In this document: piece after piece, positions 3,001 to 62,727 of the stretch
Position numbering within the stretch: position 1 is the stretch's first letter
Layout: each line of letters opens with the position of its first letter
NCBI GenBank assembly: GCA_964535715.1
Contig: CAZHUO010000001.1
Coordinates: 31,696-95,695 of the forward strand
From: an uncultured Gammaproteobacteria bacterium
Lineage (GTDB): Bacteria > Patescibacteriota > Patescibacteriia > Buchananbacterales > UBA6539
Direction of reading: 5' to 3'
DNA: 64,000 bases
Notes under the pieces: model-generated
Databases searched by the model: none
What the model was told of the DNA's origin: nothing
What the model saw: the letters and a program-made list of their open reading frames with translations, nothing else
Position numbers and translations under genes: made by a program

Positions 3001-6000
3001 CCAGGATGCTGATGCTTATTGCAAGACTTTTTATGCCTGGCAGGGTTCAAGTGAAACCGGCTATCAATTAAAGACTTATGTTTTATCAACCGCCAATGCC
3101 TTAAGTAATGAGCCAAAAAGTACAATCACTGATTTAGAAGATTGGCCAAGCGAGTGGTGCAGCGATAAAACGTTAGATGCAAACGGCCTGCCTAATTGCT
3201 GCAATGGTCCCGATGATTTGGAAAAAAATCCATTTTGCCGGGAATTTTATGATATTAATGGAACAATTTACTATAAAATTTATCAAAATACAATCAGCTG
3301 TTCAGACAACTGCCATCCTTTCCGCAAGACCCGCCTGGGAGAAAACGATTCGGATGCGGAGACAAATTGCAAAGCAAGCAACGGAAGCTGGGATTCTGCT
3401 AACTTAGTTTGCATTTATCAGGCCATACCCGGCCAGGGAATTGCCTGTTCCAGCCGCGCGATCGGCTGCCGGGAATACCGCGGAAATGCCGGTGCAAACA
3501 TTTTTACCGCGTTTTTTGAAGACTTTGAAAGCGGAACGGAAAGCGGCTGGAAAATCGGACAAATCCAAAGCGAAGCTTTGTCAATTGCCGGCCATTCAAT
3601 TATGAGCCAGTCTCTAAAATTAAAAACGTCGATAGGTGTTTTGACGGATTCTGCAGGTAATCCAATAAATTGCAATGATTTGACTTTACGGTCATGCGAT
3701 GCAAATAATCCGCAAGACTATAATTGTTATGATAGGGCGGCAAATGCCTGCAAGGCTAAAGATAGTGACCGGTCGGATATTTGCTTGGTGCAAGTAGGCG
3801 AACAATATTGCAGTGTTTTAGGCAATACGATAAAGCCGAAAAAGACCTATTTGATTTCTTTTTGGGCGAAGAGCGCTTCCGCCAATATTGTACAGGATTT
3901 GGAAATTAAATTTATAAATAATAACGATGTTTCAGATGTTCTAACTCCGCAAAAAATAAATATCCAGCCGGATTGGGATTATTATCTGTTTGGTCCGTAT
4001 AAGGCGGAAAATATTATCAGAGCCGACGGCGCCATTGATCCGTCAATCGCCATAGATTTTGCTTCAAGAACAGGAGAATTTTATGTTGATAACTTAAGGA
4101 TTCAGGAAGTTAAAAATTATGTTTATGTAAATAAGGGCACCTGGGCAACTCCGCAGAGCTGCGACCAAAATCCGTTTGTTGAAAACGGCCCGATTAGGGC
4201 GCCTCAATTCATGCTTGGCTGCAAGCAGTATTTGGATATTTCAAATTTAGTCCATAATTTGAGGTCGTTCAATAAATTGTGCCGGGAAATCGCCGTTGGC
4301 TGCGAAGCGATGATTGATACTAATAATTCAACCTCTCCGTTCAGCGAGACTTTCAATCAAAATGACATATATGACAATGGCACTGATTATACAACCGATG
4401 ATGATGTTGATTTTTCCCTGACTGTTCCGCAAGACAAGCTGGTATATATTGTCAACCGCCTTGCTTATCAATGCGAACAGCCGTATAAAGGCTGTCAAAT
4501 TTTGGGGCTGCCGTTAATTAATATAAATAATGAAGTTGTCGGTTATAATACGGTGAGCAAGATTAATAATCCCGATGATTATGCTAATTCATTATGCAGA
4601 AATTCCGAAGTCAGCTGCGAGGAATTTTCTTCAGGCAACAAATTTTCATATTTCAAGTCTCCGGGCCAAAAGACCTGTGAATATCGGCAGATTCCCAATC
4701 AGTCAAAATTTGCCTGGTATAAAACCGGTTCAATATCGGTTAATCCGGATTGTCCGATAAAGCAGCCGCCTTTAGGGACGGTTCATCCAAAGAGCGGCTG
4801 GGTCGGCTTATGTCCCGAACAATACAATAATTGCACCCAATTTGTCGATTCGGCGACAAAATTCGGCAAAAATTTGATCTTCAATTATGATTTTGGAATG
4901 GATATTGACAGGGATACCGGAGGAATTCCCGATGGCTGGTATCAAGAGGCCGCAGCAGCGAATGTGGAATTATTTCAAAAAATAAAAGTTCAGCAGGGAA
5001 AATTATATATTTTCGGAGTCACCAGCAATGCTGATCCAGCAACAGTTGATCCTCTTCTTGGCTATTCGCCAAATCCGCTGCTGAAAGATACTGATTTCAA
5101 ATTTGAAATCAGGGGCTGTGAATCAATCAGTTCTTTTGATCACTCTTTGATTGAAGAAAAAAATTGTGCAGATAAAACTACGGGAAATCTGGTATTGCCA
5201 AAAGCAGCATGTCAAAACGATAGTGATTGCGGCTCCAATCGCTGTGCTAAAATTTTAGCCATGCCGCCTGAAGTCTATCAAAATGATGACAGGACAAATG
5301 AAACTATTTCCGGGCTTAGGGGAGAAAGGGAATATACCGGCAGATTTTTCAGTCCTTTTGACCAGTATTGCGAAATAAGAATAATTGCCAGTCCTGAAGC
5401 CGACTTTATAGCTAAAGTAAGAAAGAATTTAAATAAAGTTTCAGCCAGAGAGGCGCTTGTCAATTATGCCTTAAGCGATACGGTTGACAAAATGAGCTGC
5501 AATGGCGTGGCTGACGAAAAAGCCGGCTGCGTGCTTTTCAACGACCGAAGCTATGTCAATTATCGGCTCGGCGAAGATGATATAAGCTACTTGGCTTTTG
5601 ATGCTGATATTTCAGGCAGATCGTCCGGCAATGAATTAATAAACAACGGCTTGCCGGTTATGGAAAGCAACACTTCGGCCTATCGGGTTGATTCAAATAT
5701 TGTTTTAAAAACAAAGCCTGACCGCGAATGCGAAGCTTGGATTTATCCAAACAGCTTTACCAATTTTTCCGAAGAGAAAGTTGAAAGGAATTTTTCCACC
5801 AGCATTATTACCTGCAACTCAATGGAAAGCGACGGCAGCTGCAGCGGTTTTGCCTTTAATAACAACAAGCTGGGTACTTGCCGGATAGATTCGTCGACAC
5901 CACCCGTGTCTTCCTGCATAAACGATTCAGACTGTTCAGCTGGATTTAAATGCTTCAGGCAGTCTTATGATTATTATAATAATCCGGAGCAAGTTAAAAA

Positions 6001-9000
6001 TCTAAGCGGTTTCAGCAAACCGGGATATTATTTCGCCAAAGGCGGAGTCTGTACCGCCGGACAAGCCGCTGGTGCAAGCTGTATAGACGATTTTCAATGC
6101 GCCCTTGTTGCCGGCAGTTGCGATAAATTCGTTTTTGGCTATTATCCTTTTTCGGAAATGAAACAGTTAGGCGGCCTTACTATATCGCAAAGCACTGATT
6201 TCGAAGCCGGAATATTAAAGCCTTATGGCTGGATTTTGGATGATCTTCTTCCTTTAAATAGTGAGCCGCCGGATTTTTCCAAGGCAGAATGGAAGCCAGG
6301 ATATGCAATGCTTATTAATAATCCGGTTAGTGCCCAGCAGCAGGGAATTGACCCGTTTGCGCCGTCTGGACGGGCTTTTGTCAGAGTTAGCGGCCCATTC
6401 AGAATAAAATCAGAAGAAATCGAGGCTTTTAGCAGTACCGAATATTTTATTTCCGGTTATCTGAATACCGTTAATTTGGCCGAAGGAAGCGGTCTTATCT
6501 CAATCAGGGAATTGGATGGAGATGGCAATAAAATCGGCAGCGACAAGCCTTTATTGAGGCTTCAAAAAGGCAATGGCTGGTCGCTTTTGACTAATAATTT
6601 TATAACCGAATCAGCTACTGCAAGGCTAGAGGTGATATTAAGCAATTGGAATGATAATGGCGGATTACATGATGGGGTTTCTGGCGATACTTATTTTGAT
6701 GATGTGAAAATCCGCCCGGTGCTGAAAGCCGCCGGCCTGGAATTCGATGATACTTATATTGTTCCAAGCTGCCGAATTTATCCGGCATCCGATTCTTTAA
6801 GCTGTGATTATTATACCGATAAAAATTACCGCTTGCGCGGCTGGCTTGGCTATTGCCTGCAGCCCGATCCGGCCAATGCAAGCCAGTGCCTGCTTTGGTG
6901 GCCGGTTGATTTGATTGAAGGCGGCTATGCTCCGGAACAGCCTTCGAATATCCCGTCGCCTTTATATTATTGCCTGGGTGCGGTTGAAGACCTTTATTAT
7001 TTGAATAAATGCTTATTTGAAAACGGAGAGCTGTGTTCTTCGGTTAATTCCAGGCCGAACAGTTCAGAAACTTTGCCAAGAATTTTCAGCTGGGAAGTGC
7101 CGCAAGATTGGAAAATTCAGGACTGGCAGATTCAAAATATTTCCGCCGGCGCCATGATAGTTGACTGCAATCCTCCGGAAAGCGGCGCTCCGTATTGCCA
7201 GACACAGACAGCTTATTCCAGGCTGGTTTTCAATCGGCATCCTTTGGAGGAAAATGCCTGGGTCAACAGAGACGGCATCAAGGCAAAATTAAATTATAGC
7301 AGCCAGGGCCTTTTGGAAAGCATTGATTTTGAAGTTTTAGGCGCTAATTGCGTTTGTAATAATATTGACATTACTTTTGTCATTAAAAATATTTGGTGCC
7401 GGTATTTGGTCCAGACAGTGACGCTATTTGGCCAAAACAAAGCCTGGTTTAATCGGATTTCCGAAGAAGGCGCCAAAAGATTTGTCATTCCCGGTCTTGG
7501 CTATCTTGAAAGCGCTGATTATTTGCTTTTTGGATCGGCAGTTCCGCCCGAGCCGGCCGGCGAACCGGAAGCCTGGAATTTGTCTGACGATTCTTGGATT
7601 CGGCCTTTGCTGGTTGCCCGGCCTTATTTTGAAATGTTTGAAGCTCCCTATCAGGCAAGGGCGGGTACTCCGTATGCCTGCGTTCAGGGTTCAGCCGCTT
7701 TTTGGGGCAAGCCTTGCAGTTATCCCGGGGAATCAGGCGTAACAAATATCATTGCTTGGAGCCAAAATTCAGATAATTCAAAAGATCCTTTAGAACATTT
7801 TATAAATTACTATGGCAAAGAAAGCTTAATGCGCTTATTTGCCAGAACCTACGGCTCATGGGAATTCCAGGGCTATGGCGTTTGCCGGCCGGATCCATCA
7901 TTGGAAACCCCGCCCGTGCCAATAGAAGCTATTTGCGCCTGTCCGGAAAGCGAATGTGCAAAACTTGATAAGGACATCACTTATAAGGCATGTGGAAAAG
8001 GAATTTGCTCTTATTTTGATGAGGGCGGGCGATTAATTCCCGACTCCAGCGATGAAGCGTTGGTTCCGGATAATATCGTCAAATGCGAAACGGATCAAGA
8101 ATGTTTGGATAGTCGCTCATGCGAAAACAATGTGTGCAAGGGAACATTGGGCGTTGGATGCACCACTCATTTGGATTGTCCGATATCGTTTTGCATCCCA
8201 ACCGGCCAGTCCTGCGAAGTCGATCTTTGGGATTGCATTTCACTGAAACAATTAATTTCAGATGCCGCCACAATGGTTATCCAAACCTTTTATACCGATA
8301 GCTATTTAACTATTGAATTGGTTATTGTCTTAATTGTTGTAAAACTAATTGGCATGATACTGCTTTCTTGCGGCCCGAAAAGTTGCAGTAATAGTAGTGG
8401 CTGCGATATAGGTGAAGGCACGTGTATTTCGTTTATTTCTTACCTTCTTTTAAATTGGGGAATCAGTGACTCAGACGATCCCAATGGGCTTGATTGGGTT
8501 ATTAATTCTTTAATTGCTCCGATTTTAGGCACGATGACCGGTGACGCCAGTGATGGTAGTGGCAATGTTATACAAAATATTTTAAATTTAATAGGCTTAG
8601 GAGAATCTAATGAAACTCTTTTTGAAAGCGATGTTGGAATTTTTGCCTTTATCGGGGATATTTTCGGCGAGCAGTTAGGCACTGTTTTGGGAAGCGTGTG
8701 CAGTAATACTCCTTTCCGTTGCTCAGGAGGTAAAAAGCAAAGATGCTGCTGGTGGAGCAACTGTAATCCTTTTACAACCAGCCAAAGCCGATGCGAAGCC
8801 GGGCCTTTTGCCGGAAAGATTTGTTCAACTGCTTCTGTGGATGAAAGCGGAGATCAATGTCCAGAAGATTATATTTGCGAGCTTAAAAGCGAAACCTCGT
8901 CTTATATTGATGTATCCGGTTTTGACTGGAAAGAGCCGATTTCATCGTGTCCAAATAATGTAAGGCCTTTGGGGTACTGTGAAGGCGGAATCTATGATAA

Positions 9001-10231
9001 GCTGCCATGCTTCAATAATGAAAGCTGCATTGGCTTTAAAGGCAAGTGCGATGAAAATCAAATATGCGTTACATCTGAAGTAAACAAATATATTCCGCAA
9101 ATCGCTTCTTTTGATACGGTATGCAGTAATGGTGCATATGCAATTTGGGTGCAAAATATCTGTAAGTATGATTTAGGGGAGTTTGATGAAACCGCTGAAT
9201 TTATTATGTCTTCAAGGCCATTTGTTAGACTTGAAGTTTGCAGTGGAGATAGTACTATGTCTTGTACAAGCGATGCTCAATGTATAGATGGTCATGGTGT
9301 CAGTCATGGATTTTGTGTCTTGGTTGCTACCTCTCCCCTCCCGACAATTGATGGAGAAACATGTACTGGTCAAATGCCTGGTTCTGCGAATGCTGGTTAT
9401 GTTGGAGAAATAAAAAATGTGCCATTAAAATTATGTTCAAATAATAAAAGTAAAACTTGTGACAATAGTAGTGATTGTGATGGTAATAGTTGTGATTTTA
9501 TAAAAGATTTAAGATTATGCGTCATTGAAGAGCAGCATTATTTATTGTATAAAGAAAATACTACTGATATTTTATGCACTGATCAAAATGTTACTGATTT
9601 AAAAAATTGCAAAGATCTTCCTGGCTATAATCCATGCAATGAGGGAGATAGTTGGGATAACAATAAATATTGTTATAAAGATTCGGTCCTGCCGGTTATT
9701 TCAGCTGACTGCAATGCTGGTTCCCCGGGAAAAGTCTGCTATTCCGAAACTAGCTGCAGTATTAGCGGCGGAGATTATTGCGCTGTTTATCCGACAATCA
9801 CTTATTTTTCAGTCAATGGAAAAGAAGGATCGTCAATTCAGATATACGGAACGGGAAGCATTGTTTTGAATTTCACCGCTGAAATCGATGAAGCCCAGCT
9901 GCCTATGACCGGTTATGCTATAAATTGGGGTGATGATACTAAAAGCTCGGTCAGCGGCCAGTTGCTTGCTGTTCATTCAAGCAAGGAAAATCCTTTTAAG
10001 GCAACTCATTTCTATTCCTACTGGGATTTATTGGCTTTAGATCAAGCCGGAAAGCTTTACTGCGGACAGGCCCCTGGTGATAAATGCTGCAAGCCCGAAG
10101 AATCAGTATGTGTTGTTGTTCCTATGGTTCGGGTTACTGATAATTGGGGCTGGTGCAGCGGGGGGCAGCACGGCTCAGCTTGCCAAAGCAGTTGGACTCG
10201 ATTCGGCGGCCAAATTGTTGTTATGCCGTAG
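2..10231 (+). CDS. Giant secreted cysteine-rich surface protein, 5'-partial. Repeated beta-sandwich CBM/galactose-binding-like modules alternate with Cys-rich linkers. One internal hydrophobic helix lies near residue 2750.
   Basis: Single open frame from the window edge (no stop from nt 2) to the stop at 10231. The tool start at 47 is TTG, so the true start is probably upstream. Very high Cys content with recurring C-x(4-8)-GC-x-E-F and AGCSEF-type motifs. At least four segments look like CBM4_9/laminin-G beta-sandwich units (e.g. SLRFYNSGTNVTAEI..., SLSVKLINGGAVGKEHDF..., HSIMSQSLKLKTSIG...KTYLISFWAKS). Hydrophobic segment LTIELVIVLIVVKLIGMILL. Confidence 0.8.
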   Translation, partial: GDSESDSSDRFSLPDLPGFNFGSTGENEIYTGDTGLGFYGGRQGAQSRFIDFLNAGISEVGQYDILTKFTSCPDSANPGPDECVILSGFRQAIEKEITLSQAIESGYIAGDKPFGSMQFNGQESLRSGFPYRSLLILRSHRVIPVTWEIAAAAINKFEKGGSRSLNELIGSFNDKSSIYYGLIDPDWVLKLPEHYCKAQGYGEKILYEEVTEGIDNNADGDFNDDSDVPPIRMVGRSQYCADFQSCLKETEDGACMWGYCVEERRIWDLDASSCPKEFNTCQTFQGRSGNVFSALQNTLDFNGCNINNVGCRWYCQHYNPISKVWDCTSESERTLNVCVESTVDSNGVAGCAVAANCDINEGQNRCFDQGNGIEVKISEPCSSSSKWWNTATEKCSILSSEAACTIPRSGIQCYTSGCEKFDNLLSNPSFEVPPQPRIPGVLTFDIAQNWKINEAYINYFILAGGDREQVYDGSNSLRFYNSGTNVTAEINSDGINLVPGKQYTFSGKIYNNLVSGKATITINGTSKEITERKEGWQSLDFEFLGAINTSINIQIGGTISSGGQVAGSIWFDNFKITESCSVNPIKLTLIGTMETDQSKLHLDRNASECPSDKAGCSEFIRTKVGLGTNLYRNSSFEIWPEGQLFPPGMTYGDQWETSNRIEKIYSGLEGSLSVKLINGGAVGKEHDFQSESIIGMKPNTAYRISLWAKSDEKVDSKWSVGVLYKRSNGSINHDDLTINDKKELSLNSNWQHYIFNAYGTDIGGSEFKISFNNASTDPNVPIYLDAIQIEEVPSSNSYFSEYKDYGKVNLSYIKKAPESLGCKGYTKERPSPYVIDGIVAKEQCQGENLVWKKACLGGENNGKNCNSISDCPSGSCVPRGCEGDKCCHEIDPAECYSYSPYCFADEVGCNSYNPTEGNISIQSVVARDDYCPAECIGYDSYKQSATYFESKEALDFFIPSTAVSCTAADAGCDEFTNLDEISQGGEAKEYYKYLRLCKKPQDADAYCKTFYAWQGSSETGYQLKTYVLSTANALSNEPKSTITDLEDWPSEWCSDKTLDANGLPNCCNGPDDLEKNPFCREFYDINGTIYYKIYQNTISCSDNCHPFRKTRLGENDSDAETNCKASNGSWDSANLVCIYQAIPGQGIACSSRAIGCREYRGNAGANIFTAFFEDFESGTESGWKIGQIQSEALSIAGHSIMSQSLKLKTSIGVLTDSAGNPINCNDLTLRSCDANNPQDYNCYDRAANACKAKDSDRSDICLVQVGEQYCSVLGNTIKPKKTYLISFWAKSASANIVQDLEIKFINNNDVSDVLTPQKINIQPDWDYYLFGPYKAENIIRADGAIDPSIAIDFASRTGEFYVDNLRIQEVKNYVYVNKGTWATPQSCDQNPFVENGPIRAPQFMLGCKQYLDISNLVHNLRSFNKLCREIAVGCEAMIDTNNSTSPFSETFNQNDIYDNGTDYTTDDDVDFSLTVPQDKLVYIVNRLAYQCEQPYKGCQILGLPLININNEVVGYNTVSKINNPDDYANSLCRNSEVSCEEFSSGNKFSYFKSPGQKTCEYRQIPNQSKFAWYKTGSISVNPDCPIKQPPLGTVHPKSGWVGLCPEQYNNCTQFVDSATKFGKNLIFNYDFGMDIDRDTGGIPDGWYQEAAAANVELFQKIKVQQGKLYIFGVTSNADPATVDPLLGYSPNPLLKDTDFKFEIRGCESISSFDHSLIEEKNCADKTTGNLVLPKAACQNDSDCGSNRCAKILAMPPEVYQNDDRTNETISGLRGEREYTGRFFSPFDQYCEIRIIASPEADFIAKVRKNLNKVSAREALVNYALSDTVDKMSCNGVADEKAGCVLFNDRSYVNYRLGEDDISYLAFDADISGRSSGNELINNGLPVMESNTSAYRVDSNIVLKTKPDRECEAWIYPNSFTNFSEEKVERNFSTSIITCNSMESDGSCSGFAFNNNKLGTCRIDSSTPPVSSCINDSDCSAGFKCFRQSYDYYNNPEQVKNLSGFSKPGYYFAKGGVCTAGQAAGASCIDDFQCALVAGSCDKFVFGYYPFSEMKQLGGLTISQSTDFEAGILKPYGWILDDLLPLNSEPPDFSKAEWKPGYAMLINNPVSAQQQGIDPFAPSGRAFVRVSGPFRIKSEEIEAFSSTEYFISGYLNTVNLAEGSGLISIRELDGDGNKIGSDKPLLRLQKGNGWSLLTNNFITESATARLEVILSNWNDNGGLHDGVSGDTYFDDVKIRPVLKAAGLEFDDTYIVPSCRIYPASDSLSCDYYTDKNYRLRGWLGYCLQPDPANASQCLLWWPVDLIEGGYAPEQPSNIPSPLYYCLGAVEDLYYLNKCLFENGELCSSVNSRPNSSETLPRIFSWEVPQDWKIQDWQIQNISAGAMIVDCNPPESGAPYCQTQTAYSRLVFNRHPLEENAWVNRDGIKAKLNYSSQGLLESIDFEVLGANCVCNNIDITFVIKNIWCRYLVQTVTLFGQNKAWFNRISEEGAKRFVIPGLGYLESADYLLFGSAVPPEPAGEPEAWNLSDDSWIRPLLVARPYFEMFEAPYQARAGTPYACVQGSAAFWGKPCSYPGESGVTNIIAWSQNSDNSKDPLEHFINYYGKESLMRLFARTYGSWEFQGYGVCRPDPSLETPPVPIEAICACPESECAKLDKDITYKACGKGICSYFDEGGRLIPDSSDEALVPDNIVKCETDQECLDSRSCENNVCKGTLGVGCTTHLDCPISFCIPTGQSCEVDLWDCISLKQLISDAATMVIQTFYTDSYLTIELVIVLIVVKLIGMILLSCGPKSCSNSSGCDIGEGTCISFISYLLLNWGISDSDDPNGLDWVINSLIAPILGTMTGDASDGSGNVIQNILNLIGLGESNETLFESDVGIFAFIGDIFGEQLGTVLGSVCSNTPFRCSGGKKQRCCWWSNCNPFTTSQSRCEAGPFAGKICSTASVDESGDQCPEDYICELKSETSSYIDVSGFDWKEPISSCPNNVRPLGYCEGGIYDKLPCFNNESCIGFKGKCDENQICVTSEVNKYIPQIASFDTVCSNGAYAIWVQNICKYDLGEFDETAEFIMSSRPFVRLEVCSGDSTMSCTSDAQCIDGHGVSHGFCVLVATSPLPTIDGETCTGQMPGSANAGYVGEIKNVPLKLCSNNKSKTCDNSSDCDGNSCDFIKDLRLCVIEEQHYLLYKENTTDILCTDQNVTDLKNCKDLPGYNPCNEGDSWDNNKYCYKDSVLPVISADCNAGSPGKVCYSETSCSISGGDYCAVYPTITYFSVNGKEGSSIQIYGTGSIVLNFTAEIDEAQLPMTGYAINWGDDTKSSVSGQLLAVHSSKENPFKATHFYSYWDLLALDQAGKLYCGQAPGDKCCKPEESVCVVVPMVRVTDNWGWCSGGQHGSACQSSWTRFGGQIVVMP

Positions 10232-15617: not shown

Positions 15618-16046
15618 TTGTCATCCTGAATTCATTACCTTTTTGTCATCCTGAATTCATTTCAGGATCTCGGAAAGTCTAGAAAGCAACACTTTGTCAT
15701 CCTGAATTCATTTCAGGATCCAGCAAATCCTAGAGACTCTGAAATAAATTCAGAGTGACAAGTCTAGAAAAAAAGCGCACCCTTGTCATCCTGAACTTGC
15801 CTGCCCGCCGGAGCAAAAGTGTAGGCGGGGTTCAGGATCCAGCAAAGTCTAGAAAGCAACACTTTGTCATCCTGAATTCATTTCAGGATCCAGCAAAGTC
15901 TAGAGACTCTGAAATAAATTCAGAGTGACAAGTCTAGAAAAAAAGCGCACCCTTGTCATCCTGAATTCATTACCTTTTTGTCATCCTGAACTTGGTTCAG
16001 GATCCAGCAAAGTCTAGAGACTTTGAAATAAATTCAGAGTGACAAA
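15618..16046. repeat. Array of palindromic hairpin repeat units (REP/MITE-like). About 2.5 copies of a ~170-bp composite unit.
   Basis: Recurrent ttgtcatcctgaa-N-ttcaggatc hairpins (8-bp stem, loops of 5 nt up to a 36-nt GC-rich loop) and gagactctgaaataaattcagagtgac hairpins. Nested tgacaag...cttgtca stems. The 125-bp segments 15676-15800 and 15846-15967 are near-identical. Confidence 0.8.
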
Positions 16047-16119
16047 TGAAGAAATAAAGTAAAGACAAATCTTAAAATTAATAACTAACAACAAAACTGG
16101 GGGTTAAATTGACAAAACT

Positions 16120-23269: not shown

Positions 23270-23487
23270 TAATTTAATGGCTTTATGCTAAGATTTACTA
23301 GTTAAAATAATCAGGATTAATCGTTAACTGCTCATTTTAAATTGTAAATTGTTAACTTGCCTATAAGCAAGCTGTTAATTGTTAACCTGCCTACCGTCTT
23401 GTTGCCGAGTGCCGGCAGGCAGTTAACTGTTAATTGTTTCAGCCAGAGGCTGATTCGCCTATGGCGAAAACTGTCAACTGTTATTAT

Positions 23488-24065: not shown

Positions 24066-24499
24066 ATGTACTATGTTTATTTTTTGAAAAGTAAGAAAGC
24101 AGAAAATTGGATATATACAGGTTCAACAGTTAATTTAAAAAAAAGATTTTTAGATCACAGTTTAGGAAAATCATTATCGACAAAACCATATTTACCAGTT
24201 TATTGGCGACGTAGGGCGAGAGAAACAAAAAGTAAACAACTTTTGTTTCCGAGCCGAGGAGCCATCAAAGGGTCAATACCCGAAAGCGCTCCGTCGCCAA
24301 AGCTTTAATTATTCAGCTTTGGAGCGTCGGCGACTTGCTGCGGAAGAAGTGGGCGGAGCTTGCTCCGCGGTTTAATACCCTTTATTTAGCAGCTTATATA
24401 GCAGTTAAAACAGAAAGAAAGGCAAGAGATTTAGAAAAATATTTTAAGGCTGGGTCAGGCAAAGCAATATTAAAAAAAAGAATTTTAACTAACGAAGTG
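24066..24499 (+). pseudogene. GIY-YIG gene, copy 2, disrupted by MITE-like insertion after codon ~46
   Basis: The reading frame is identical to 23663..23917 up to ...KPYLPVY. It then runs into the insert (182 bp including the duplication, not a multiple of 3). Confidence 0.6.
24205..24380 (+). mobile_element. MITE-like structured repeat, copy b, with 6-bp TTTATT target duplication
   Basis: Empty site in copy 1 is ccagTTTATTtagcagc. Filled site in copy 2 is ccagTTTATT[ggcgacgtagggcgag...ggtttaataccc]TTTATTtagcagc. Internal stems ggcgacg/cgtcgcc, gaaacaaaa/ttttgtttc and gcggagc/gctccgc. Confidence 0.75.
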
Positions 24500-35480: not shown

Positions 35481-35640
35481 CCGGAATATAAGCACCAAAT
35501 TACAAATCCCAAACAAATGACAAAACACAAAACTCAAATTTCAAACGCTAAGTTTAGACGTTTGGAAATTGATATTTGAAATTTGTTTGGATCTTGAGAT
35601 TTGGAATTTGTAATTTATTTAGGATTTTCAGCCATAGGCG
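35481..35640. promoter_or_regulatory. Imperfect ~140-bp palindrome built from the same A/C-rich motif, between lemA and htpX
   Basis: caaattacaaatcccaaacaaatg ... atttgtttggatcttgagatttggaatttgtaattt. The arms are mutual reverse complements of the clpC-upstream motif. Confidence 0.35.
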
Positions 35641-35711
35641 CTTGCCCGCCAATGGTAGGGATCAGCCTTTAGCCGAAGAAATTAATAGGTTTATTTTGCT
35701 TGTTTAGTCGG

Positions 35712-38792: not shown

Positions 38793-40610
38793 ATGGCTAA
38801 AAAACTATTAACAATATTTATTGGCGACGTAAGGCGAGGGAAACAAAAAATATTAAATTTTTTGTTTTCGAGCCGAGGAGCCATCAAAGGGTCAATACCC
38901 GAAAGCGCTCCGTCGCCAAAGCTGCACTTTTTCCAGCTTTGGAGCGTCGGCGACTTGCTGCGGAAGAAGTGGGCGGAGCGCGTCGTCGCCAAAGCGGCTT
39001 TGACGCGTCGGCGACTTGCTCCGCGGTTAATACCCTTTATTCTATCGATAGTTTTAATTGTAAGTTCTTTGATTTTATTAAAAACTAACGCCCAGGAATT
39101 GCCGGCCGCCATGCTTTGCGGAGACGGAATTGTCCAGTCGCCAAACAGCGAAGGTTTTTATGAAAAATGCGATGAAGTCGGAGAAACCAAAAGCTGCACC
39201 AGCCAGTGCGGCCAAAAACTGCTTGGCTGGGCCTGGTCGGACAATATCGGCTGGATTTCTTTAAGTAATGAAAATTGTGATTTTTTGGCTGAAGGGACTT
39301 GCCAAAATCAGAATTATAATTATTATGTCCAGGCTAAAGCCGCTGAAATGGCCGATGGCGAGGTTAAAGGGGAAATTATAGGCTGGGGCTGGTCGGACAA
39401 TATCGGCTGGGTTTGCTTTGGCCAAACTTGCCAAGGTTATTCCGACCTTACTCCGCCTGATGGCTGGCAGACTTATGCAAAGCAGGCAGGCACTAATGAT
39501 CCGTTGGTTTTCGGCTGGGCTTGGAATGAATCAATCGGCTTAATTTCTTTAAATTGCGGCCTTAATTCAATTCCATGCGAGACTTCTGACTATCAGTTAA
39601 AACTTATTAAAAGTGATTTTGGATCTGTCCAACGCCTTACATTGTTAGGCTGGGCCTGGTCTGATATTTCCGGCTGGACTTCTTTTACTCCTGAAATCAG
39701 CGATACTCTGCCTTGGCTTCAGACAAAATATGGCGATATTTATGCCAGAAAGGGAATTTTGGGAAATGAGCCGCCTGATTATGGCTATAATGCCACTTAT
39801 CAGATAATTTCCGGAGACATTATCACTAATTTCCGCTCGGCAAGAGGTGAAGACTGGATTAAACAGGGATTTCAGGAAATCGGTTTTCCCAGGCCTAGCA
39901 CCCGCTATTCCAACGTTTTAGGGAAGATAAATATTTCGGATTTACTCTGTGATCTTTCAGTCCAAAATACCTGCATAAACAAGTTTGGAAAAATTGTTGA
40001 AAAGATTATTGATGAAAACAATTCAGGCAATATTGATCTTTCGGGCAAAATATATTACCGGGACGGTAATTTAGTCATCGACAATCCTATAAATTTTATG
40101 AATGCAGTCGGTTTTGATGACGGAAGCGGGACGATTATCGTTAATGGTGATTTGGTTATAAATAGTGACGTCAAATATGATAACTCCACTAGTCCGATAA
40201 TATTTAAAAATTTAGCTTCCGCCGCCTTTATTGTCCTGGGAGATTTGAAAATCAGCCCAAATGTCTCGAATTTGGCCGGAAATTTCATTATTATCGGCAA
40301 CGGAAATGATTGCAATCCAAATCAGGAAAGTGAAGTGACCGGCTGCGGCCAAATATATACTTGCTGCGTTTTAAGCGGCGAAAGCTGCGCTTTTGACGAA
40401 AGAGTCTGCCAACAGAATCCTTTAATAGTTTCCGGCTTGATGATGGCTAAAAAGTTTTATTTAAAACGTATATTCATCACCGACTCGCAAGATGTTCAGG
40501 GTTCGGAAATCATTATTTACGATGGGAGGCTTTTGGCCAATACGCCTCCGGGGTTGGGCGACTTTGCCAAATCAATGCCGATTTGGCATTTGGATTTTTT
40601 GTCTCAATAA
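38793..40610 (+). CDS. Secreted protein with five GWAWSDNIGW(I/V) repeats. The signal-peptide region is interrupted in frame by MITE-like copy c.
   Basis: After conceptual excision of 38823-39041 the N-terminus reads MAKKLLTIFILSIVLIVSSLILLKTNAQE, a canonical signal peptide. Repeats LLGWAWSDNIGWISL, IIGWGWSDNIGWVCF, VFGWAWNESIGLISL, LLGWAWSDISGWTSF. Confidence 0.65.
   Translation: MAKKLLTIFIGDVRRGKQKILNFLFSSRGAIKGSIPESAPSPKLHFFQLWSVGDLLRKKWAERVVAKAALTRRRLAPRLIPFILSIVLIVSSLILLKTNAQELPAAMLCGDGIVQSPNSEGFYEKCDEVGETKSCTSQCGQKLLGWAWSDNIGWISLSNENCDFLAEGTCQNQNYNYYVQAKAAEMADGEVKGEIIGWGWSDNIGWVCFGQTCQGYSDLTPPDGWQTYAKQAGTNDPLVFGWAWNESIGLISLNCGLNSIPCETSDYQLKLIKSDFGSVQRLTLLGWAWSDISGWTSFTPEISDTLPWLQTKYGDIYARKGILGNEPPDYGYNATYQIISGDIITNFRSARGEDWIKQGFQEIGFPRPSTRYSNVLGKINISDLLCDLSVQNTCINKFGKIVEKIIDENNSGNIDLSGKIYYRDGNLVIDNPINFMNAVGFDDGSGTIIVNGDLVINSDVKYDNSTSPIIFKNLASAAFIVLGDLKISPNVSNLAGNFIIIGNGNDCNPNQESEVTGCGQIYTCCVLSGESCAFDERVCQQNPLIVSGLMMAKKFYLKRIFITDSQDVQGSEIIIYDGRLLANTPPGLGDFAKSMPIWHLDFLSQ
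38823..39035 (+). mobile_element. MITE-like structured repeat, copy c (213 bp), flanked by TTTATT at 38817-38822 and 39036-39041
   Basis: Same family as 24205-24380, with an internal duplication (gcggagcgcgtcgtcgccaaagcggctttgacgcgtcggcgacttgctccgcgg). Insert plus duplicated flank is 219 bp (73 codons), so the host ORF stays in frame. Confidence 0.75.
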
Positions 40611-56623: not shown

Positions 56624-59604
<2,981 letters not shown>

Positions 59605-59639
59605 GATTAGTATTTTTAAAATATTGCTATAAGCCGCAG

Positions 59640-60335
59640 GATAGTCTGCTTGCCGTTTTCAAAATTAAGATATTCGAAATTGAATCTGCGCCAAAGGCGC
59701 ATCCTAAGCCACATCCCCGCCATAGGCGGACAAGCGCCTCTGGCGGAAAAATTTAAAATTCAAAATTTTTTTGTCCAGGGTTAAAACCCTGGTCTAATAT
59801 TACAAAATCCCCTAAAGGGGATTAATTATATCAACCCACTTTTCCGCCGAAGGCGGATACGCCTCTGGCGTAAGTGGGTTTTAAAAATTAGCCATAGATT
59901 TCAATCTATGGCGTTTGGTTAAATAAAAAAAGAGCCCCTGGCATAAGTAATCGGTGGCTCGGGGGCAAAGCGCGATTAGAGAAACTTAAATGCCAGGGGC
60001 AAAAATTGAACAGGGCGGCTGAAAGAAACATTTTTGGTCGGCTCTTGGGCGTACAGCAAGACTAGCTGTTGTAGAACCGGCCTGTCAATTTAGGCAGCCG
60101 CCCTGAAAAAAAATAAGGAGCAGAGTGCCTCTGGCATTTAGGTTTGTGAGGGGGGGGCGGAAGGGGAGGAAAGGGAAAAAAACCTAGAATGCCAGAGGCA
60201 AAAAATTGGTCGGAGCGGCTAAATGCCACGCCATCGCAAGCAAAAAATATTTATTCACGGCGGACGCGCTTCAGCAATGACTCATCATTGCCATATTGCT
60301 TGTGCAGGAGGCTAAATTTTAGCCGCTCCGATATT
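59640..60335. repeat. Hairpin-dense noncoding island with two tandem paralogous ~190-nt structured units. Possible ncRNA genes.
   Basis: No ORF. Short perfect hairpins (gcgcc-aaa-ggcgc, ccgcc-ata-ggcgg, ccaggg-ttaaaa-ccctgg, cccc-taaa-gggg, ccgcc-gaa-ggcgg). Unit 1 is 59930-60105 and unit 2 is 60120-60330. Each has stem A (gcccctggcat...atgccaggggc; gtgcctctggcat...atgccagaggca) and stem B (gggcggctg...cagccgccc; ggagcggctaaa...tttagccgctcc). The 9-mer GCCTCTGGC or its complement occurs at least six times. Confidence 0.6.
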
Positions 60336-60347
60336 GTGTTTTAGGAA

Positions 60348-60425
60348 TGGTGTGACCGGCAGGATTTGAACCCGCAACCTCTTTCATAATAAGAAAGCAT
60401 TCTAGTTCAGCTGAGCTGCGGCCAC
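60348..60425 (-). tRNA. tRNA-like gene, probably degenerate. Anticodon-loop triplet AUU; D-stem mismatch; G18G19 lost.
   Basis: Acceptor GTGGCCG pairing with CGGTCAC, then A and CCA. Good T-arm GCGGGTTCAAATCCTGC. Anticodon stem CTTTC/GAAAG with loop TTATTAT. D-arm GCTC-AGCTGAACTA-GAAT. Confidence 0.45.
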
Positions 60426-60676
60426 ACTTAAAGGAGTAGGAACGATTTTATTCGTTTCCAGGAAACAGCCCTGTTCCTGCTCAAATATGAGCTACTCCAA
60501 CCCCAACCGAAATGATAAAGATAAGATATTATATTACGAATGTTTTGTCAAGTATTTTAAGAAAAAAGCGAGCAGATGTCTTTTTGACAAACAACTCGCC
60601 CGTCTGCTGATTAGTTTGAATCAGCTGCTCATTTCCTTGAAATTGACAAGCATCATAGGCGTCTAATATTAAAGAA

Positions 60677-61927
60677 CTAGATTTTTTTCATTGCACCCCC
60701 GATATGCATGCCTTTTGGAACGACAATTATGTTATTTTCTTTAAGGACAATACCGGGGTATTGCTCGGCTTCAGCTTCGGGATTTTGACCAAGTATGACG
60801 CCGTCGCCAAACGAGGCTGATTTGTCAGCAATAACCCGGTGCAGACTTACTCCTATTCCAACTTGAACTTTGTCAAAAAGGACTGAATCATTAATTAGAC
60901 TGTATTGAGCCACTTTGGTGCGAGTTGAAAGAACCGAGGAGGATACACTGCCGGCAATAATGCTGCCTGAGCATATTACGGCATCATGAATACTGCAACC
61001 GTTTATGCCTTTAAGCGGGGCAAAGTCGCGTGACAGATGATATATCGGCCATTTTTCGTTATACATGTTAAATGCCGGCTTTGGACCCACTAAGTCCATA
61101 TTGCCTTTCCAAAGAGTATCAATAGTTCCAACATCAAGCCAGTAATCGTCATGTTCGAATAGCGCGACTGAATAATCTGAACTGGCAATGACATGGGGAA
61201 TGACATGCTTGCCAAAATCATCGCCCGGATAGTCAGCCAAAAGATTTTTTAGCCTGTCAATGCTCACTATATAAATGCCAAGATTTGCCAGGGCATAGTT
61301 AGTGCCGGGAACCAGGGGCGGATCTGACGGCTTTTCAACAAAGTCAATAGTTTTACCTTGACTGTCCACAATAAAGACTCCAAGTTCCTTGGCATCTTCA
61401 GCCGGTATTTTTTTGACAACCACTGTCATTGCCGCGCCTTGTCTTTTGTGAAGTTCAATTAAAGGACCGTAATCCATCTGATATATGTGATCGCCGGATG
61501 CAACCAGCATATATTTATAACCTTTTTCGAGTAGATAGGCGCTTTTTTTTATTGCATCAAAGGTGCCGGAGAAAAGTCCATCCTCGCCATGATGAAGCAG
61601 CGGAGTGATTTGGCCATCAATTGCCGTACCAAGGTCATGGCGCATGAATGTTTTATTCAAATGATGGTTGATTTTATTTGAGTGGATCTGAAGCAAAACA
61701 TCGATTTTGCGAATCGATGGCGTATTGATGCCATTACTGACAACAATATCGATTAAGCAGCGATCCATAAAAGGAACCAGTGGTTTGGGGCGATCTTCCG
61801 CATTTTCTCCGGTTAAAGGATTTAACCTGGTACCTAAGCCGCCAGCTAAAATTACCATTCTTGTGTCGGAAAGCATTTTATATCCTCCATTTTGTATTTG
61901 GTTTTCATTGAACAAAAAATTCAGCAA
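60677..61927 (-). CDS. glgC: Glucose-1-phosphate adenylyltransferase
   Basis: VILAGGLGTRLNPLT nucleotidyl-transferase motif, PKPLVPF, and a left-handed beta-helix C-terminal domain. 416 aa. Confidence 0.8.
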   Translation of the reverse strand: MLNFLFNENQIQNGGYKMLSDTRMVILAGGLGTRLNPLTGENAEDRPKPLVPFMDRCLIDIVVSNGINTPSIRKIDVLLQIHSNKINHHLNKTFMRHDLGTAIDGQITPLLHHGEDGLFSGTFDAIKKSAYLLEKGYKYMLVASGDHIYQMDYGPLIELHKRQGAAMTVVVKKIPAEDAKELGVFIVDSQGKTIDFVEKPSDPPLVPGTNYALANLGIYIVSIDRLKNLLADYPGDDFGKHVIPHVIASSDYSVALFEHDDYWLDVGTIDTLWKGNMDLVGPKPAFNMYNEKWPIYHLSRDFAPLKGINGCSIHDAVICSGSIIAGSVSSSVLSTRTKVAQYSLINDSVLFDKVQVGIGVSLHRVIADKSASFGDGVILGQNPEAEAEQYPGIVLKENNIIVVPKGMHIGGAMKKI

Positions 61928-62303
61928 AATGAATAATGCTGAATAATATATGCTAAGCTATTTTGTTGGATTTGTCAAGACTTTTGGTAAAAAAGTGGGC
62001 GCGACAAATCATGTGGATTGTGTCGCGCCCTGAAATTAGACTTCTAAAGCGGGGTAAGGTTCGTCAATTTGACGAATAGAAAGAAAGCTTTCAGAAGTCA
62101 TAGAATGGGTAATTATTGGGCGCAGCCTGGCTGTCGTCGGTAAAGTGTGCCAGGCTGCGCTATGTGGCACGTTTGCGTGCCAACGCGAAAGGAGCAAAAT
62201 GGTGGGGGCGGACTCAACCGGTTTTGTAGGGGAGAAAAGCAAAAAACCTACATATCCAGGAATCAACGCCCCCATAATAAAAAAGAGCCGAATAAAGATC
62301 TAG

Positions 62304-62375
62304 GAGTGAGGGCGGGAATCGAACCCGCGACTTAGGTAATGGCTTTTCCTTGCTCTACCGCTGAGCTACCTCACT
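62304..62375 (-). tRNA. tRNA-Gly (anticodon GCC) with atypical A33 and one anticodon-stem mismatch
   Basis: Acceptor AGTGAGG pairing with CCTCACT. D-arm TAGCTCAGCGGTAGAGC. Anticodon loop aaGCCat. T-arm GCGGGTTCGATTCCCGC. Confidence 0.6.
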
Positions 62376-62547
62376 CCAGGGCCAAGGCAGGCCAAAAAAT
62401 TTTGTATTTAAAATATAATAGATTATTTATTAATAGTCAAGTTTAACGGGTAATGTAATTAAAAAAGGCGGATTCTTTGATTTCATTTAGGGAGTGGGAG
62501 GGATTTGGTGTAAATCAAAGATTGCGCCGTGGCTTGGATAAAAATGT

Positions 62548-62610
62548 GGCGTAGCCCGGTTTTTTTCTGTTTGTTGGTGTCTGTCTATGTTTTGTCTGTC
62601 GGGCTACGCC
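62548..62610. other. 11-bp-stem hairpin with a T-rich 40-nt loop, upstream of gatC
   Basis: ggcgtagcccgg ... cgggctacgcc. Confidence 0.3.
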
Positions 62611-62684
62611 TATTGGCACCATTGCGGTGCCAGGAGAAAAGGAACAAATCTATGTATTATGTAAAATATCAAACTATTTTAGTC

Positions 62685-62713
62685 TTGTCAAATATAAAAA
62701 AAATCTGTATAAT
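62685..62713 (+). promoter_or_regulatory. Near-consensus sigma70 promoter for gatCA
   Basis: TTGTCA (62685-62690), 17-nt spacer, TATAAT (62708-62713). The ATG lies 15 nt downstream, with an aaagg RBS. Confidence 0.55.
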
Positions 62714-62727
62714 GTAAAGGTGTATTT

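Follow-up and report, generated by a model that had tools for sequence, protein, structure and literature searches.

A non-coding island between ligA and glgC in a Buchananbacteria-like genome: candidate structured RNAs with tRNA-derived elements

Described RNA systems and the ligA-glgC island

Transfer RNA (tRNA)-like elements that act as processing handles within transcripts are known from several settings, including MALAT1/mascRNA and NEAT1/menRNA in mammals, tRNA punctuation in mitochondria, and the tRNA-linked 3' external transcribed spacer small RNAs (sRNAs) of E. coli. In the Firmicutes, sRNAs with C-rich motifs, such as RsaE/RoxS, other Rsa RNAs and RNAIII, display UCCC motifs in their loops and pair with Shine-Dalgarno (SD) regions. 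To our knowledge, almost nothing is known about the regulatory RNAs of the uncultivated Candidate Phyla Radiation (CPR)/Patescibacteria, whose genomes are tiny and tightly packed, and no description of RNAs of the kind reported here was found for Patescibacteria in the literature searched. In this study, the gap between ligA and glgC (hereafter the island) was investigated in a 64,000-nt stretch of contig CAZHUO010000001.1, which is referred to as the window. On balance, we consider it probable that the island consists of a minus-strand cluster of structured RNAs that includes tRNA-derived elements, accompanied by a set of mini-hairpins belonging to the 3' end of ligA. The island is a real, non-random and partly conserved structured-RNA locus, moderately interesting rather than transformative.

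The island spans 1,072 bp (59605-60676) between ligA on the plus strand (57580-59604) and glgC on the minus strand (60677-61927), and most intergenic gaps of the window, whose genome is tightly packed, are shorter than 300 nt. By its LigA, the window falls within Patescibacteria, close to Candidatus Buchananbacteria. The island was compared with 13 related ligA loci, and covariance models were scanned over 92 sources amounting to about 1 Mb of Patescibacteria DNA; the relative that recurs most often below is L001 (contig CAZCCC010000007.1). A first-pass annotation of this DNA had noted that no open reading frame (ORF) above 60 codons is present, which agrees with our finding that none reaches 60 codons and that the longest encodes 59 amino acids (aa), and a Pfam search of the island ORFs gave no matches. 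Either strand folds far more stably than shuffled sequence (z from -6.2 to -9.1). We observed that the island is composite, with mini-hairpins on the plus strand (59687-59912) and an RNA cluster on the minus strand (from 60551 to 59921). The Rfam scan that the annotation had proposed, run over the whole window at the gathering threshold, matched the island with the tRNA model alone (60351-60425, minus strand) and with no RNase P, transfer-messenger RNA (tmRNA), signal recognition particle, 6S, riboswitch or ribozyme family; when the threshold was relaxed to E <= 10 over 59500-60750, nothing but sub-threshold noise was added, leaving the junction element and the hairpin modules described below without a family.

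The large hairpins are arranged in two tandem units, A (59931-60108) and B (60124-60335), whose direct repeats (D2, D3 and D11) lie 193-200 nt apart and show the units to be in register. Each unit is built on two long-range stems, all of them perfect: in unit A these are GCCCCTGGCAT/ATGCCAGGGGC (hairpin A1, inverted repeat I13, with 45 nt between the arms) and CAGGGCGGCTG/CAGCCGCCCTG (hairpin A2, I14, 73 nt), and in unit B they are TGCCTCTGGCATT/AATGCCAGAGGCA (hairpin B1, I7, 49 nt) and TCGGAGCGGCTAAA/TTTAGCCGCTCCGA (hairpin B2, I6, 94 nt). Thus, the two paralogous units of about 190 nt with one shared two-stem architecture, which the first-pass annotation had described, are confirmed. The paralogy is one of architecture and stems only, and the units are too diverged for Tandem Repeats Finder, which detected nothing in them; B1 and A1, each the second hairpin of its module (B2-B1 and A2-A1), carry a GCCYCUGGCAU stem. 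The same annotation had set these structures apart from simple terminators, and this is right for B2 and A2, which are multi-helix hairpins of 95-122 nt with no U-tract, and wrong for A1 and its L001 orthologue, which are textbook intrinsic terminators. A1 folds at -30.2 kcal/mol (z = -5.7) and reads ...AUGCCAGGGGC-UC-UUUUUUU on the minus strand, with its run of seven U at 59931-59925; it is a canonical intrinsic terminator, and would close the predicted minus-strand RNA cluster.

The tRNA-like element had been placed after the units as a degenerate gene on the opposite strand; it does exist and does lie on the minus strand, where it stands upstream of the units in the putative transcript. Like canonical tRNA (RF00005), it is cloverleaf-sized (75 nt) and retains an intact 7-bp acceptor stem (GUGGCCG/CGGUCAC), an intact T arm with a 5-bp stem (GCGGG-UUCAAAU-CCUGC), the discriminator A and, in the window copy, an encoded CCA, and its locus holds real tRNAs on the same strand in relatives. 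Its closest relative is the bona fide tRNA-Ala(GGC) of L086 (6391-6466; 74% over 84 nt). Unlike canonical tRNA-Ala, it has G3-C70, together with U2-A71, in place of the alanine identity pair G3.U70, a D stem (GCUC/GAAU) with a C.A mismatch, a D loop (AGCUGAACUA) with no GG, an anticodon loop that differs between the window (UUAUUAU, AUU) and L001 (UUGUCAA, GUC) and hence is not conserved, and a marginal Rfam score (39.7 bits against a threshold of 29; 30.7 bits for the L001 orthologue, which has no recognisable D stem). Comparison of the two copies by eye shows that G4.U69 of the acceptor stem becomes C-G in L001, that the T stem gains an A-U pair, and that a U-A pair of the anticodon-like stem becomes C-G. 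These features suggest an element that is tRNA-derived and structurally maintained but unlikely to decode.

A tRNA proper is ruled out by the D-arm and the anticodon/identity tests and by the silence of ARAGORN, which called no tRNA at 60351-60425 or in the L001 orthologue. Again, the element resembles tmRNA (SsrA), itself processed by tRNA enzymes, in being derived from a tRNA with acceptor and T arms and in having no decoding anticodon, whereas it has no G3.U70 pair, tag frame or pseudoknots and its acceptor closes a tRNA-sized unit rather than an RNA of about 350 nt. Identity with tmRNA was rejected on account of the third pair (G3-C70) and of the negative searches, in which ARAGORN found no tmRNA in the window or L001 and Rfam no tmRNA family in the island even at E <= 10.

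Preceding the tRNA-like element in the putative transcript is a G-rich leader with a cloverleaf-like junction element, which the first-pass annotation did not mention and which is conserved even better than the tRNA-like element. The junction (60433-60498) is made up of P1 (GGAGUAG/CUACUCC), a short variable arm, P3 (CAGGAACA-GGGC-UGUUUCCUG, closed by the GGGC tetraloop) and P4 (GAAACGA-loop-UCGUUC). In the true tRNAs that L082 and L092 have at this locus, the 5' part of the junction, GGAGUAGCUCA, is found again as acceptor positions 4-7, U8, A9 and the D stem, and because this string is common to those tRNAs, the junction element is probably a remodelled tRNA too, a view that we hold with moderate confidence.

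As in the processing handles named above, a tRNA-shaped element lies between structured RNAs, and RNase P and RNase Z would set the ends of its neighbours; unlike those cases, the arrangement here is predicted from sequence, the host belongs to the CPR, and the neighbours are short hairpin modules rather than a long non-coding RNA or mRNAs. With RsaE/RoxS, the cluster has in common a predicted terminator-ended hairpin RNA with an unpaired C-rich loop, which B1 displays, whereas there is no sequence or Rfam similarity, the B1 loop is much longer (34 nt), and SD targets are nearly absent, given that 36 of the 40 window genes have no SD core (GGAG, GAGG or AGGA) within 20 nt before the start and that the upstream sequence is A/T-rich. 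Because of this, the target of the C-rich loop must differ from the SD targets of RsaE/RoxS-type RNAs. Likewise, A1 and its L001 equivalent share a GC-rich stem and U-tract with ordinary terminators, and the mini-hairpins, being short, GC-rich, repeated and located after genes, recall repetitive extragenic palindromic (REP) sequences and bacterial interspersed mosaic elements (BIMEs); in contrast to these, B2 and A2 are multi-helix structures with conserved inner helices, the large units were found at a single locus, with no other copy in the 64-kb window or the 92 loci, and no RAYT-type transposase is in view. By analogy, the closest working likeness would be a combination of tRNA-like processing handles with terminator-ended sRNAs whose hairpins carry C-rich loops, and the locus is probably a new lineage-specific form of tRNA-derived elements and hairpin sRNAs.

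Conservation in relatives and the strand of the cluster

The genome of L001, whose LigA is 74% identical to that of the window, carries the same set of RNAs downstream of ligA, in unchanged order on the minus strand, namely the G-rich leader and junction, the tRNA-like element, a hairpin homologous to B2, a C-rich-loop hairpin and a canonical terminator that reads CCUCUGGAAAUCA...UGAUUUCCAGAGG-C-UUUUUUU, where CCUCUGGAAAUCA is the stem. A TTGACA hexamer is found upstream of this cluster as well (8740-8735). By blastn, 60269-60506 aligns with L001 8363-8588 (E = 4.5e-23), and B2 is homologous to L001 8311-8427. The leader and junction are 85% identical to L001 8513-8592, with a mean column identity of 90% in an 82-column alignment, and because only 42.6% of the four-fold degenerate sites of ligA are identical between the same two genomes, this level of identity indicates strong purifying selection on the leader and junction. 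Compensatory changes, for which the first-pass annotation had proposed a comparative check, were found both between the window and L001 and between the paralogues B2 and A2. When B2 was aligned with its L001 orthologue and A2, 91.8% of the cells were paired and nine of the 32 pairs changed on both sides, a number reached by none of 500 shuffles, while slid registers gave 0-1.

A wider view of the locus is given by relatives with LigA 72-82% identical, most of which have an ORF-poor gap of 700-1,000 nt between ligA and gatCAB, some with glgC inserted there on the opposite strand; L087, L089 and L090 have gaps of just 63-254 nt. Bona fide tRNAs are encoded opposite ligA in L082 (Gly-UCC), L086 (Ala-GGC, Thr-GGU and a third tRNA match of 124 nt), L087 (Trp) and L092 (an insertion-bearing tRNA that was detected by Rfam only). 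Rfam scans of 11 related loci and a permissive scan of seven returned tRNAs only, and the only stretch that can be aligned across many relatives is the gatC-proximal divergent promoter region. Covariance models built for the junction (R1), for a second tRNA-like type described below (R2) and for B2/A2 (R3) identified no new members in the roughly 1 Mb scanned; an exact search across metagenomes for the best-conserved 20-mer of the junction gave one chance match inside a coding region, and an 18-mer search of viral contigs gave none.

Several of these results weigh against a functional RNA cluster of the kind we favour. The same RNAs were found in one orthologous genome only, L001, and R1, which scores 102 bits in the window and L001, has no other match in the roughly 1 Mb, whereas L081 and L092, with LigA 82% and 77% identical, hold different RNAs at the locus. 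Since the RNAs of the relatives differ and the three models find no further copies, the elements have a rapid turnover and may in part be dispensable. Three sequences from two genomes underlie the covariation test, two of the three being paralogues within one genome. The junction folds only modestly better than its shuffles (z about -2), and its short second arm is absent from the minimum-free-energy fold of L001, for which reason the predicted structure may be a three-way junction. B1, which folds well (z = -8.1), is only partly terminator-like, as its U8 tract begins 12 nt past the stem, and is not a canonical terminator. Finally, the basal stems are perfect throughout (11-14 of 11-14 bp), which is also expected from palindrome maintenance at the DNA level or from recent duplication.

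These points come together in the most serious alternative, which we regard as unlikely, that the island is evolutionary debris mixed with ordinary terminators: a decaying minus-strand tRNA array lying among the palindromic terminators of the convergent ligA, glgC and tRNA transcripts, with no new functional RNA, and with palindromes kept perfect by duplication or by template-switch correction of quasi-palindromes. The perfect basal stems and the canonical terminators A1 and its L001 counterpart fit such a history, whereas the conserved inner helices, with their wobble pairs and bulges, are unlike the products of palindrome correction. Decay would likewise agree with a tRNA-like element that has lost G3.U70, the D-loop signature and a conserved anticodon, yet compensatory changes between L001 and the window preserve the acceptor and T arms of the same element, and neutral decay is excluded for the leader and junction, whose 85% identity compares with 43% at neutral sites. 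The relatives, which hold different tRNAs, degenerate pieces or, in the short gaps of L087, L089 and L090, nothing, and in which no further family members were found, also favour debris; on the other hand, a non-functional stretch of about 1 kb would be unusual in so tightly packed a genome, and the C-rich loops discussed below are enriched about 15-fold on one strand across these very relatives. Even if the locus held merely terminators and decaying tRNA genes, it would still be a fast-evolving tRNA/small-RNA hot spot between ligA and gatCAB in this lineage.

Strand-specific signals speak for the RNA cluster. The units and the cluster as a whole (59921-60551) most likely belong to the minus strand, because the tRNA-like element and the true tRNAs of the relatives lie there, because the promoter-like site is there and U-tracts follow hairpins there only, and because G.U pairs and covariance-model scores fall on that strand. 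A hairpin with a U-tract was observed on the minus strand only, in A1, in the L001 terminator and in similar RNAs of L086 and of the window (62530-62465), the plus strand having A-runs instead. The G.U pairs occur in the T stem and the acceptor stem, in P3 of the L001 junction and in the middle helix of B2. Scores of the covariance models are 102-143 bits for the minus strand and 15-28 bits for the plus strand, R3 giving 143 against 24 bits for B2, and for A2 the corresponding scores of R3 are 72 and 21 bits. The first-pass annotation had read the stems of the units on the plus strand; in view of the promoter-like site, the U-tracts and the G.U pairs, the opposite strand is the more likely one. 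The glgC terminator listed in Table 1 would probably separate glgC from the predicted RNA cluster.

It is improbable, in our estimation, that the RNAs are encoded on the plus strand as sRNAs, either derived from the ligA 3' untranslated region or independent, with GGAGG/GGA loops that bind the anti-SD sequence or a CsrA-like GGA-binding protein. The plus strand does fold to a lower energy in absolute terms (-160.9 against -148.8 kcal/mol), but the excess over shuffled sequence is better on the minus strand (z -9.0 against -6.2). Similarly, one G.U pair of B2 exists on the plus strand only, being A.C on the minus strand, while those of the B2 middle helix, the acceptor and the T stem are on the minus strand. 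The stretch 60000-60300 is strongly purine-rich on the plus strand, as sense strands are in this genome, and on that strand the B1 loop contains several GGA/GGAGG motifs; against this, a consensus scan of the plus strand gave no promoter-like site from ligA to the units, several terminator-like mini-hairpins intervene between the two, A-runs rather than U-runs follow the hairpins, and the units directly adjoin the minus-strand tRNA-like element, an order shared with L001.

Table 1. Features of the ligA-glgC island, with positions in the window
Feature	Position	Strand	Structure or sequence	Basis
Mini-hairpin	59687-59701	+	TGCGCC-AAA-GGCGCA, triloop	sequence
Mini-hairpin	59717-59729	+	CCGCC-ATA-GGCGG, triloop	sequence
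Mini-hairpin, forming a twin mini-hairpin with the preceding one	59735-59745	+	CGCC-TCT-GGCG, triloop	sequence
Hairpin	~59775-59792	either	CCAGGG-TTAAAA-CCCTGG	sequence, fold
Hairpin	59806-59823	either	AATCCCC-TAAA-GGGGATT	sequence, repeat search, fold
Small three-way junction around the second twin mini-hairpin	59833-59880	+	stem AACCCACTT/AAGTGGGTT	repeat search, fold
Second twin mini-hairpin	59844-59856 and 59858-59872	+	CCGCC-GAA-GGCGG and TACGCC-TCT-GGCGTA	sequence
9-bp hairpin	59891-59912	terminator-like on + and -	GCCATAGAT-TTCA-ATCTATGGC	consensus scan
Hairpin A1	59921-60000	-	stem GCCCCUGGCAU/AUGCCAGGGGC at 59934-60000, then UCUUUUUUUAUUU	inverted repeat, fold
Hairpin A2, paralogue of B2	60011-60105	-	11-bp perfect basal stem CAGGGCGGCUG/CAGCCGCCCUG	inverted repeat, covariance model
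Spacer between units	60106-60125	-	CUCUGCUCCUUAUUUUUUUU, with UGCUCCUU-type motif and U8 tract (60113-60106)	read from sequence
Hairpin B1	60126-60200	-	13+7-bp stem (UGCCUCUGGCAUU...) capping a 34-nt C/U-rich loop	inverted repeat, fold
Hairpin B2	60210-60331	-	14-bp perfect basal stem, middle helix, inner hairpin GCAAUGA-UGAG-UCAUUGC	inverted repeat, blastn
tRNA-like element	60348-60425	-	encoded CCA at 60350-60348	Rfam RF00005
G-rich leader and cloverleaf-like junction element	60433-60516	-	leader UCGGUUGGGGUU	folds, covariance model R1
Sigma-70-type promoter-like site	60551-60523	-	TTGACA-17 nt-TATCTT, 10 of 12 matches	consensus scan
Probable glgC terminator	60557-60600	-	GCGAG...CUCGC, then UUUUUU	read from sequence; loop too long for consensus scan

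Other tRNA-type sequences were noticed at the related loci. The second tRNA-like type, found in L081 (6333-6397), L083 (2417-2487 and 4318-4385) and L085 (6148-6210), in each case on the minus strand, combines a GAAGGUUCUAAUCCUUC T arm with an acceptor stem of 9 bp stacked upon it and with inner hairpins that are not of the anticodon kind; it stands at the 3' end of GC-rich RNAs of 300-450 nt that are followed by a terminator, its acceptor stem shows compensatory changes, and the Rfam tRNA model did not match it in L081, L083 or L085. Again, minus-strand tRNA genes with insertions of 30-50 nt occur in L086 (6488-6611), L092 (6872-6970) and L084 (about 6545-6650). The insertions lie in the anticodon loop in L086 and L092, for which the Rfam tRNA model gives 53 and 46 bits, and, as judged by eye, in the D loop in L084, and they could be introns or expansions in Patescibacteria tRNAs. 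A motif, UUUG(C/U)UC(C/U)UU, directly follows the 3' ends of tRNAs and tRNA-like elements, often after ACCA, on minus strands, and is also found where downstream hairpin RNAs start; by eye, it was seen in L081, L082, L086, L092, L001 and the window (60123-60114 and 62200-62190), and it may act as a signal for processing or as a 5' seed. In L082, a gene with Pfam matches of the 23S rRNA-intervening-sequence/bAvd-like kind is inserted between gatC and gatA (7159-7515).

C-rich loops and a possible processing route

The loop of B1 (60144-60179; UUUUCCCUUUCCUCCCCUUCCGCCCCCCCCUCAC) leaves 34 nt of C/U-rich sequence unpaired and contains the longest C-rich tract in the 64-kb window, and a loop of the same kind occupies the orthologous place in L001. 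Long C-rich-loop hairpins are present in eight of 14 related gaps: in 10.2 kb of orthologous gaps, 11 were counted on the minus strand and one on the plus strand, compared with 23 on both strands of 161 kb elsewhere, which is an enrichment of about 15-fold on one strand. They are the most consistent theme across islands that otherwise change fast. The CCUCC-rich loop and the UUGCUCCUU motif were considered for an anti-SD role, and the near absence of SD cores reported above, from which the organism appears to initiate translation largely without SD pairing, weakens that role and with it one simple function for the cluster that we favour.

From the signals on the minus strand we infer a route of transcription, processing and function for the cluster. 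A primary transcript of about 600 nt would begin at the promoter-like site and end at the A1 terminator, and would comprise, in order, the G-rich leader with the junction RNA, the tRNA-like element, module B2-B1 and module A2-A1. Enzymes of tRNA processing would then cut at the tRNA-like element, RNase P on its 5' side and RNase Z or exonucleases on its 3' side, and the cuts would set free the junction RNA and the hairpin RNAs (B2-B1 and A2-A1) as individual, stable small RNAs. The effector surface would be the single-stranded C/U-rich loop of B1, which would base-pair with a G-rich RNA or bind a protein. We regard processing at the tRNA-like element as doubtful, and an effector role of the B1 loop is put forward just as cautiously. 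It is possible, and we propose it tentatively, that tRNA genes at the ligA-gatC locus were exapted in one Buchananbacteria-like lineage, giving rise to the junction, as a remodelled cloverleaf, and to an anticodon-free tRNA-like element and coming to head a processed polycistronic small-RNA operon, and that the C-rich-loop hairpins represent a new CPR-specific class of effectors acting on G-rich RNA or protein.

If this proposal is true, a conserved and covarying non-coding unit of about 600 nt would supply concrete candidates to look for in metatranscriptomes, and would be a clear bacterial example of tRNA genes becoming new structured RNAs and processing handles. The recurrence of C-rich loops in a genome that is nearly free of SD sequences poses a well-defined question about their partner.

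The window holds a second ORF-free gap, between glgC and gatC (61928-62727), with minus-strand promoter-like sites at 62691-62663 and 62440-62412. It contains an sRNA-like unit ending in a hairpin with a CCCUCCCACUCCCU loop and U6 (about 62530-62465), a tRNA-Gly(GCC) at 62303-62375, and an acceptor-like GGGGGCG...CGCCCCC-ACCA (about 62283-62197), after which come UUUUGCUCCUUUC and further GC-rich hairpins. C-rich strings that are nearly identical, such as GCTCCGCCCACTTCTTCCGCA, were also observed on the minus strand at 24205-24359 and 38823-38982, suggesting a duplicated gene or segment.

Mini-hairpins, remaining readings and neighbouring observations

The mini-hairpins between ligA and the units are more numerous than had been described, since at least eight short perfect GC-rich hairpins were found at 59687-59912 where at least six had been claimed. 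The pattern CGCC-N3-GGCG occurs eight times in the window against 0.47 expected (17-fold), with five of the eight in 59689-59870, and the twin mini-hairpin (CCGCC-NNN-GGCGG, then CGCC-UCU-GGCG) has two copies in the island (59717-59745 and 59844-59872). A weak match (E 0.054; 87% over 31 nt) links 59720-59750 to 35655-35625 on the other strand, and a similar mini-hairpin pair lies at 23442-23466. The copy at 35625-35655 is directly downstream of a minus-strand gene, and because the element follows both this gene and ligA in sense orientation, the mini-hairpins at 59687-59912 are most likely terminator or stabiliser structures of the ligA 3' end. The island's left third would then be a feature separate from the units and tied to the end of ligA. 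In L093, a Logan contig with LigA 99% identical, the sequence ends 136 nt past the ligA stop codon, where the hairpin island begins, and the assembly probably broke at the palindromes.

The 9-mer GCCTCTGGC had been reported to be repeated at least six times, and this holds only when one mismatch is allowed, in which case eight of the 19 matches in the window fall in the island; exact copies number four in the island and five in the window, where 0.32 would be expected. It had also been taken as a hint of a protein-binding site array, a suggestion that was not borne out, the 9-mer forming the stem of the hairpin that ends each unit. In the rest of the window and at the loci of the relatives it occurs at chance level, as the word search that had been proposed against a generic genome-wide repeat revealed, and a genome-wide uptake sequence or REP was rejected on this frequency.

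We consider it quite improbable that the island acts at the DNA level, as a series of sites (TGCC-N3-GGCA and CGCC-N3-GGCG) bound or recombined by a regulator, recombinase or uptake system, or as palindromes of the miniature inverted-repeat transposable element (MITE) or REP type. The word TGCCTCTGGCA is nearly palindromic and recurs in perfect copies, and CGCC-N3-GGCG is over-represented in the window as stated, while GCCTCTGGC keeps to chance frequency in the relatives. Related copies at 35625-35655 and 23442-23466 were found for the twin mini-hairpin, but for the large units there was none in the window or the 92 loci. The locus is a rearrangement hot spot among relatives, and type IV pilus genes lie directly upstream, according to Pfam tags on the orthologous genes of the relatives; against a mobile or recombining element, the gene tables of the window and the relatives show no adjacent recombinase, transposase or integrase gene, and the conserved bulged or wobble-paired inner helices and the tRNA-shaped element point to RNA. 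For the mini-hairpins alone, a DNA-level reading may apply.

The small-ORF hypothesis, very small basic plus-strand proteins from a 51-aa ORF (60189-60344) and a 20-codon GTG ORF at 60124, is ruled out for practical purposes and has the least chance of all, since the AAGGAG located 5 nt upstream of that GTG carries no weight where 36 of 40 genes have no SD core, the 91-aa ORF that spans the homologous stretch in L001 is broken by a stop codon in the window, the similarity of the two translations (AKNIY.RR / AKKYFRR and YCLCRR / YCFCRS) is set against indels of 8 and 1 nt that shift the frame of the 51-aa ORF over a hairpin kept by compensation, and Pfam gave no match.

Elsewhere in the window, intergenic direct repeats at 15618-16079 consist of three 135-nt copies, two of them 96% identical, with TTGTCATCCTGAATTCATTTCAGGATCC-type hairpins, and have no relation to the ligA island. 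The window opens with a single ORF of 3,394 aa (47-10231) for a giant protein.

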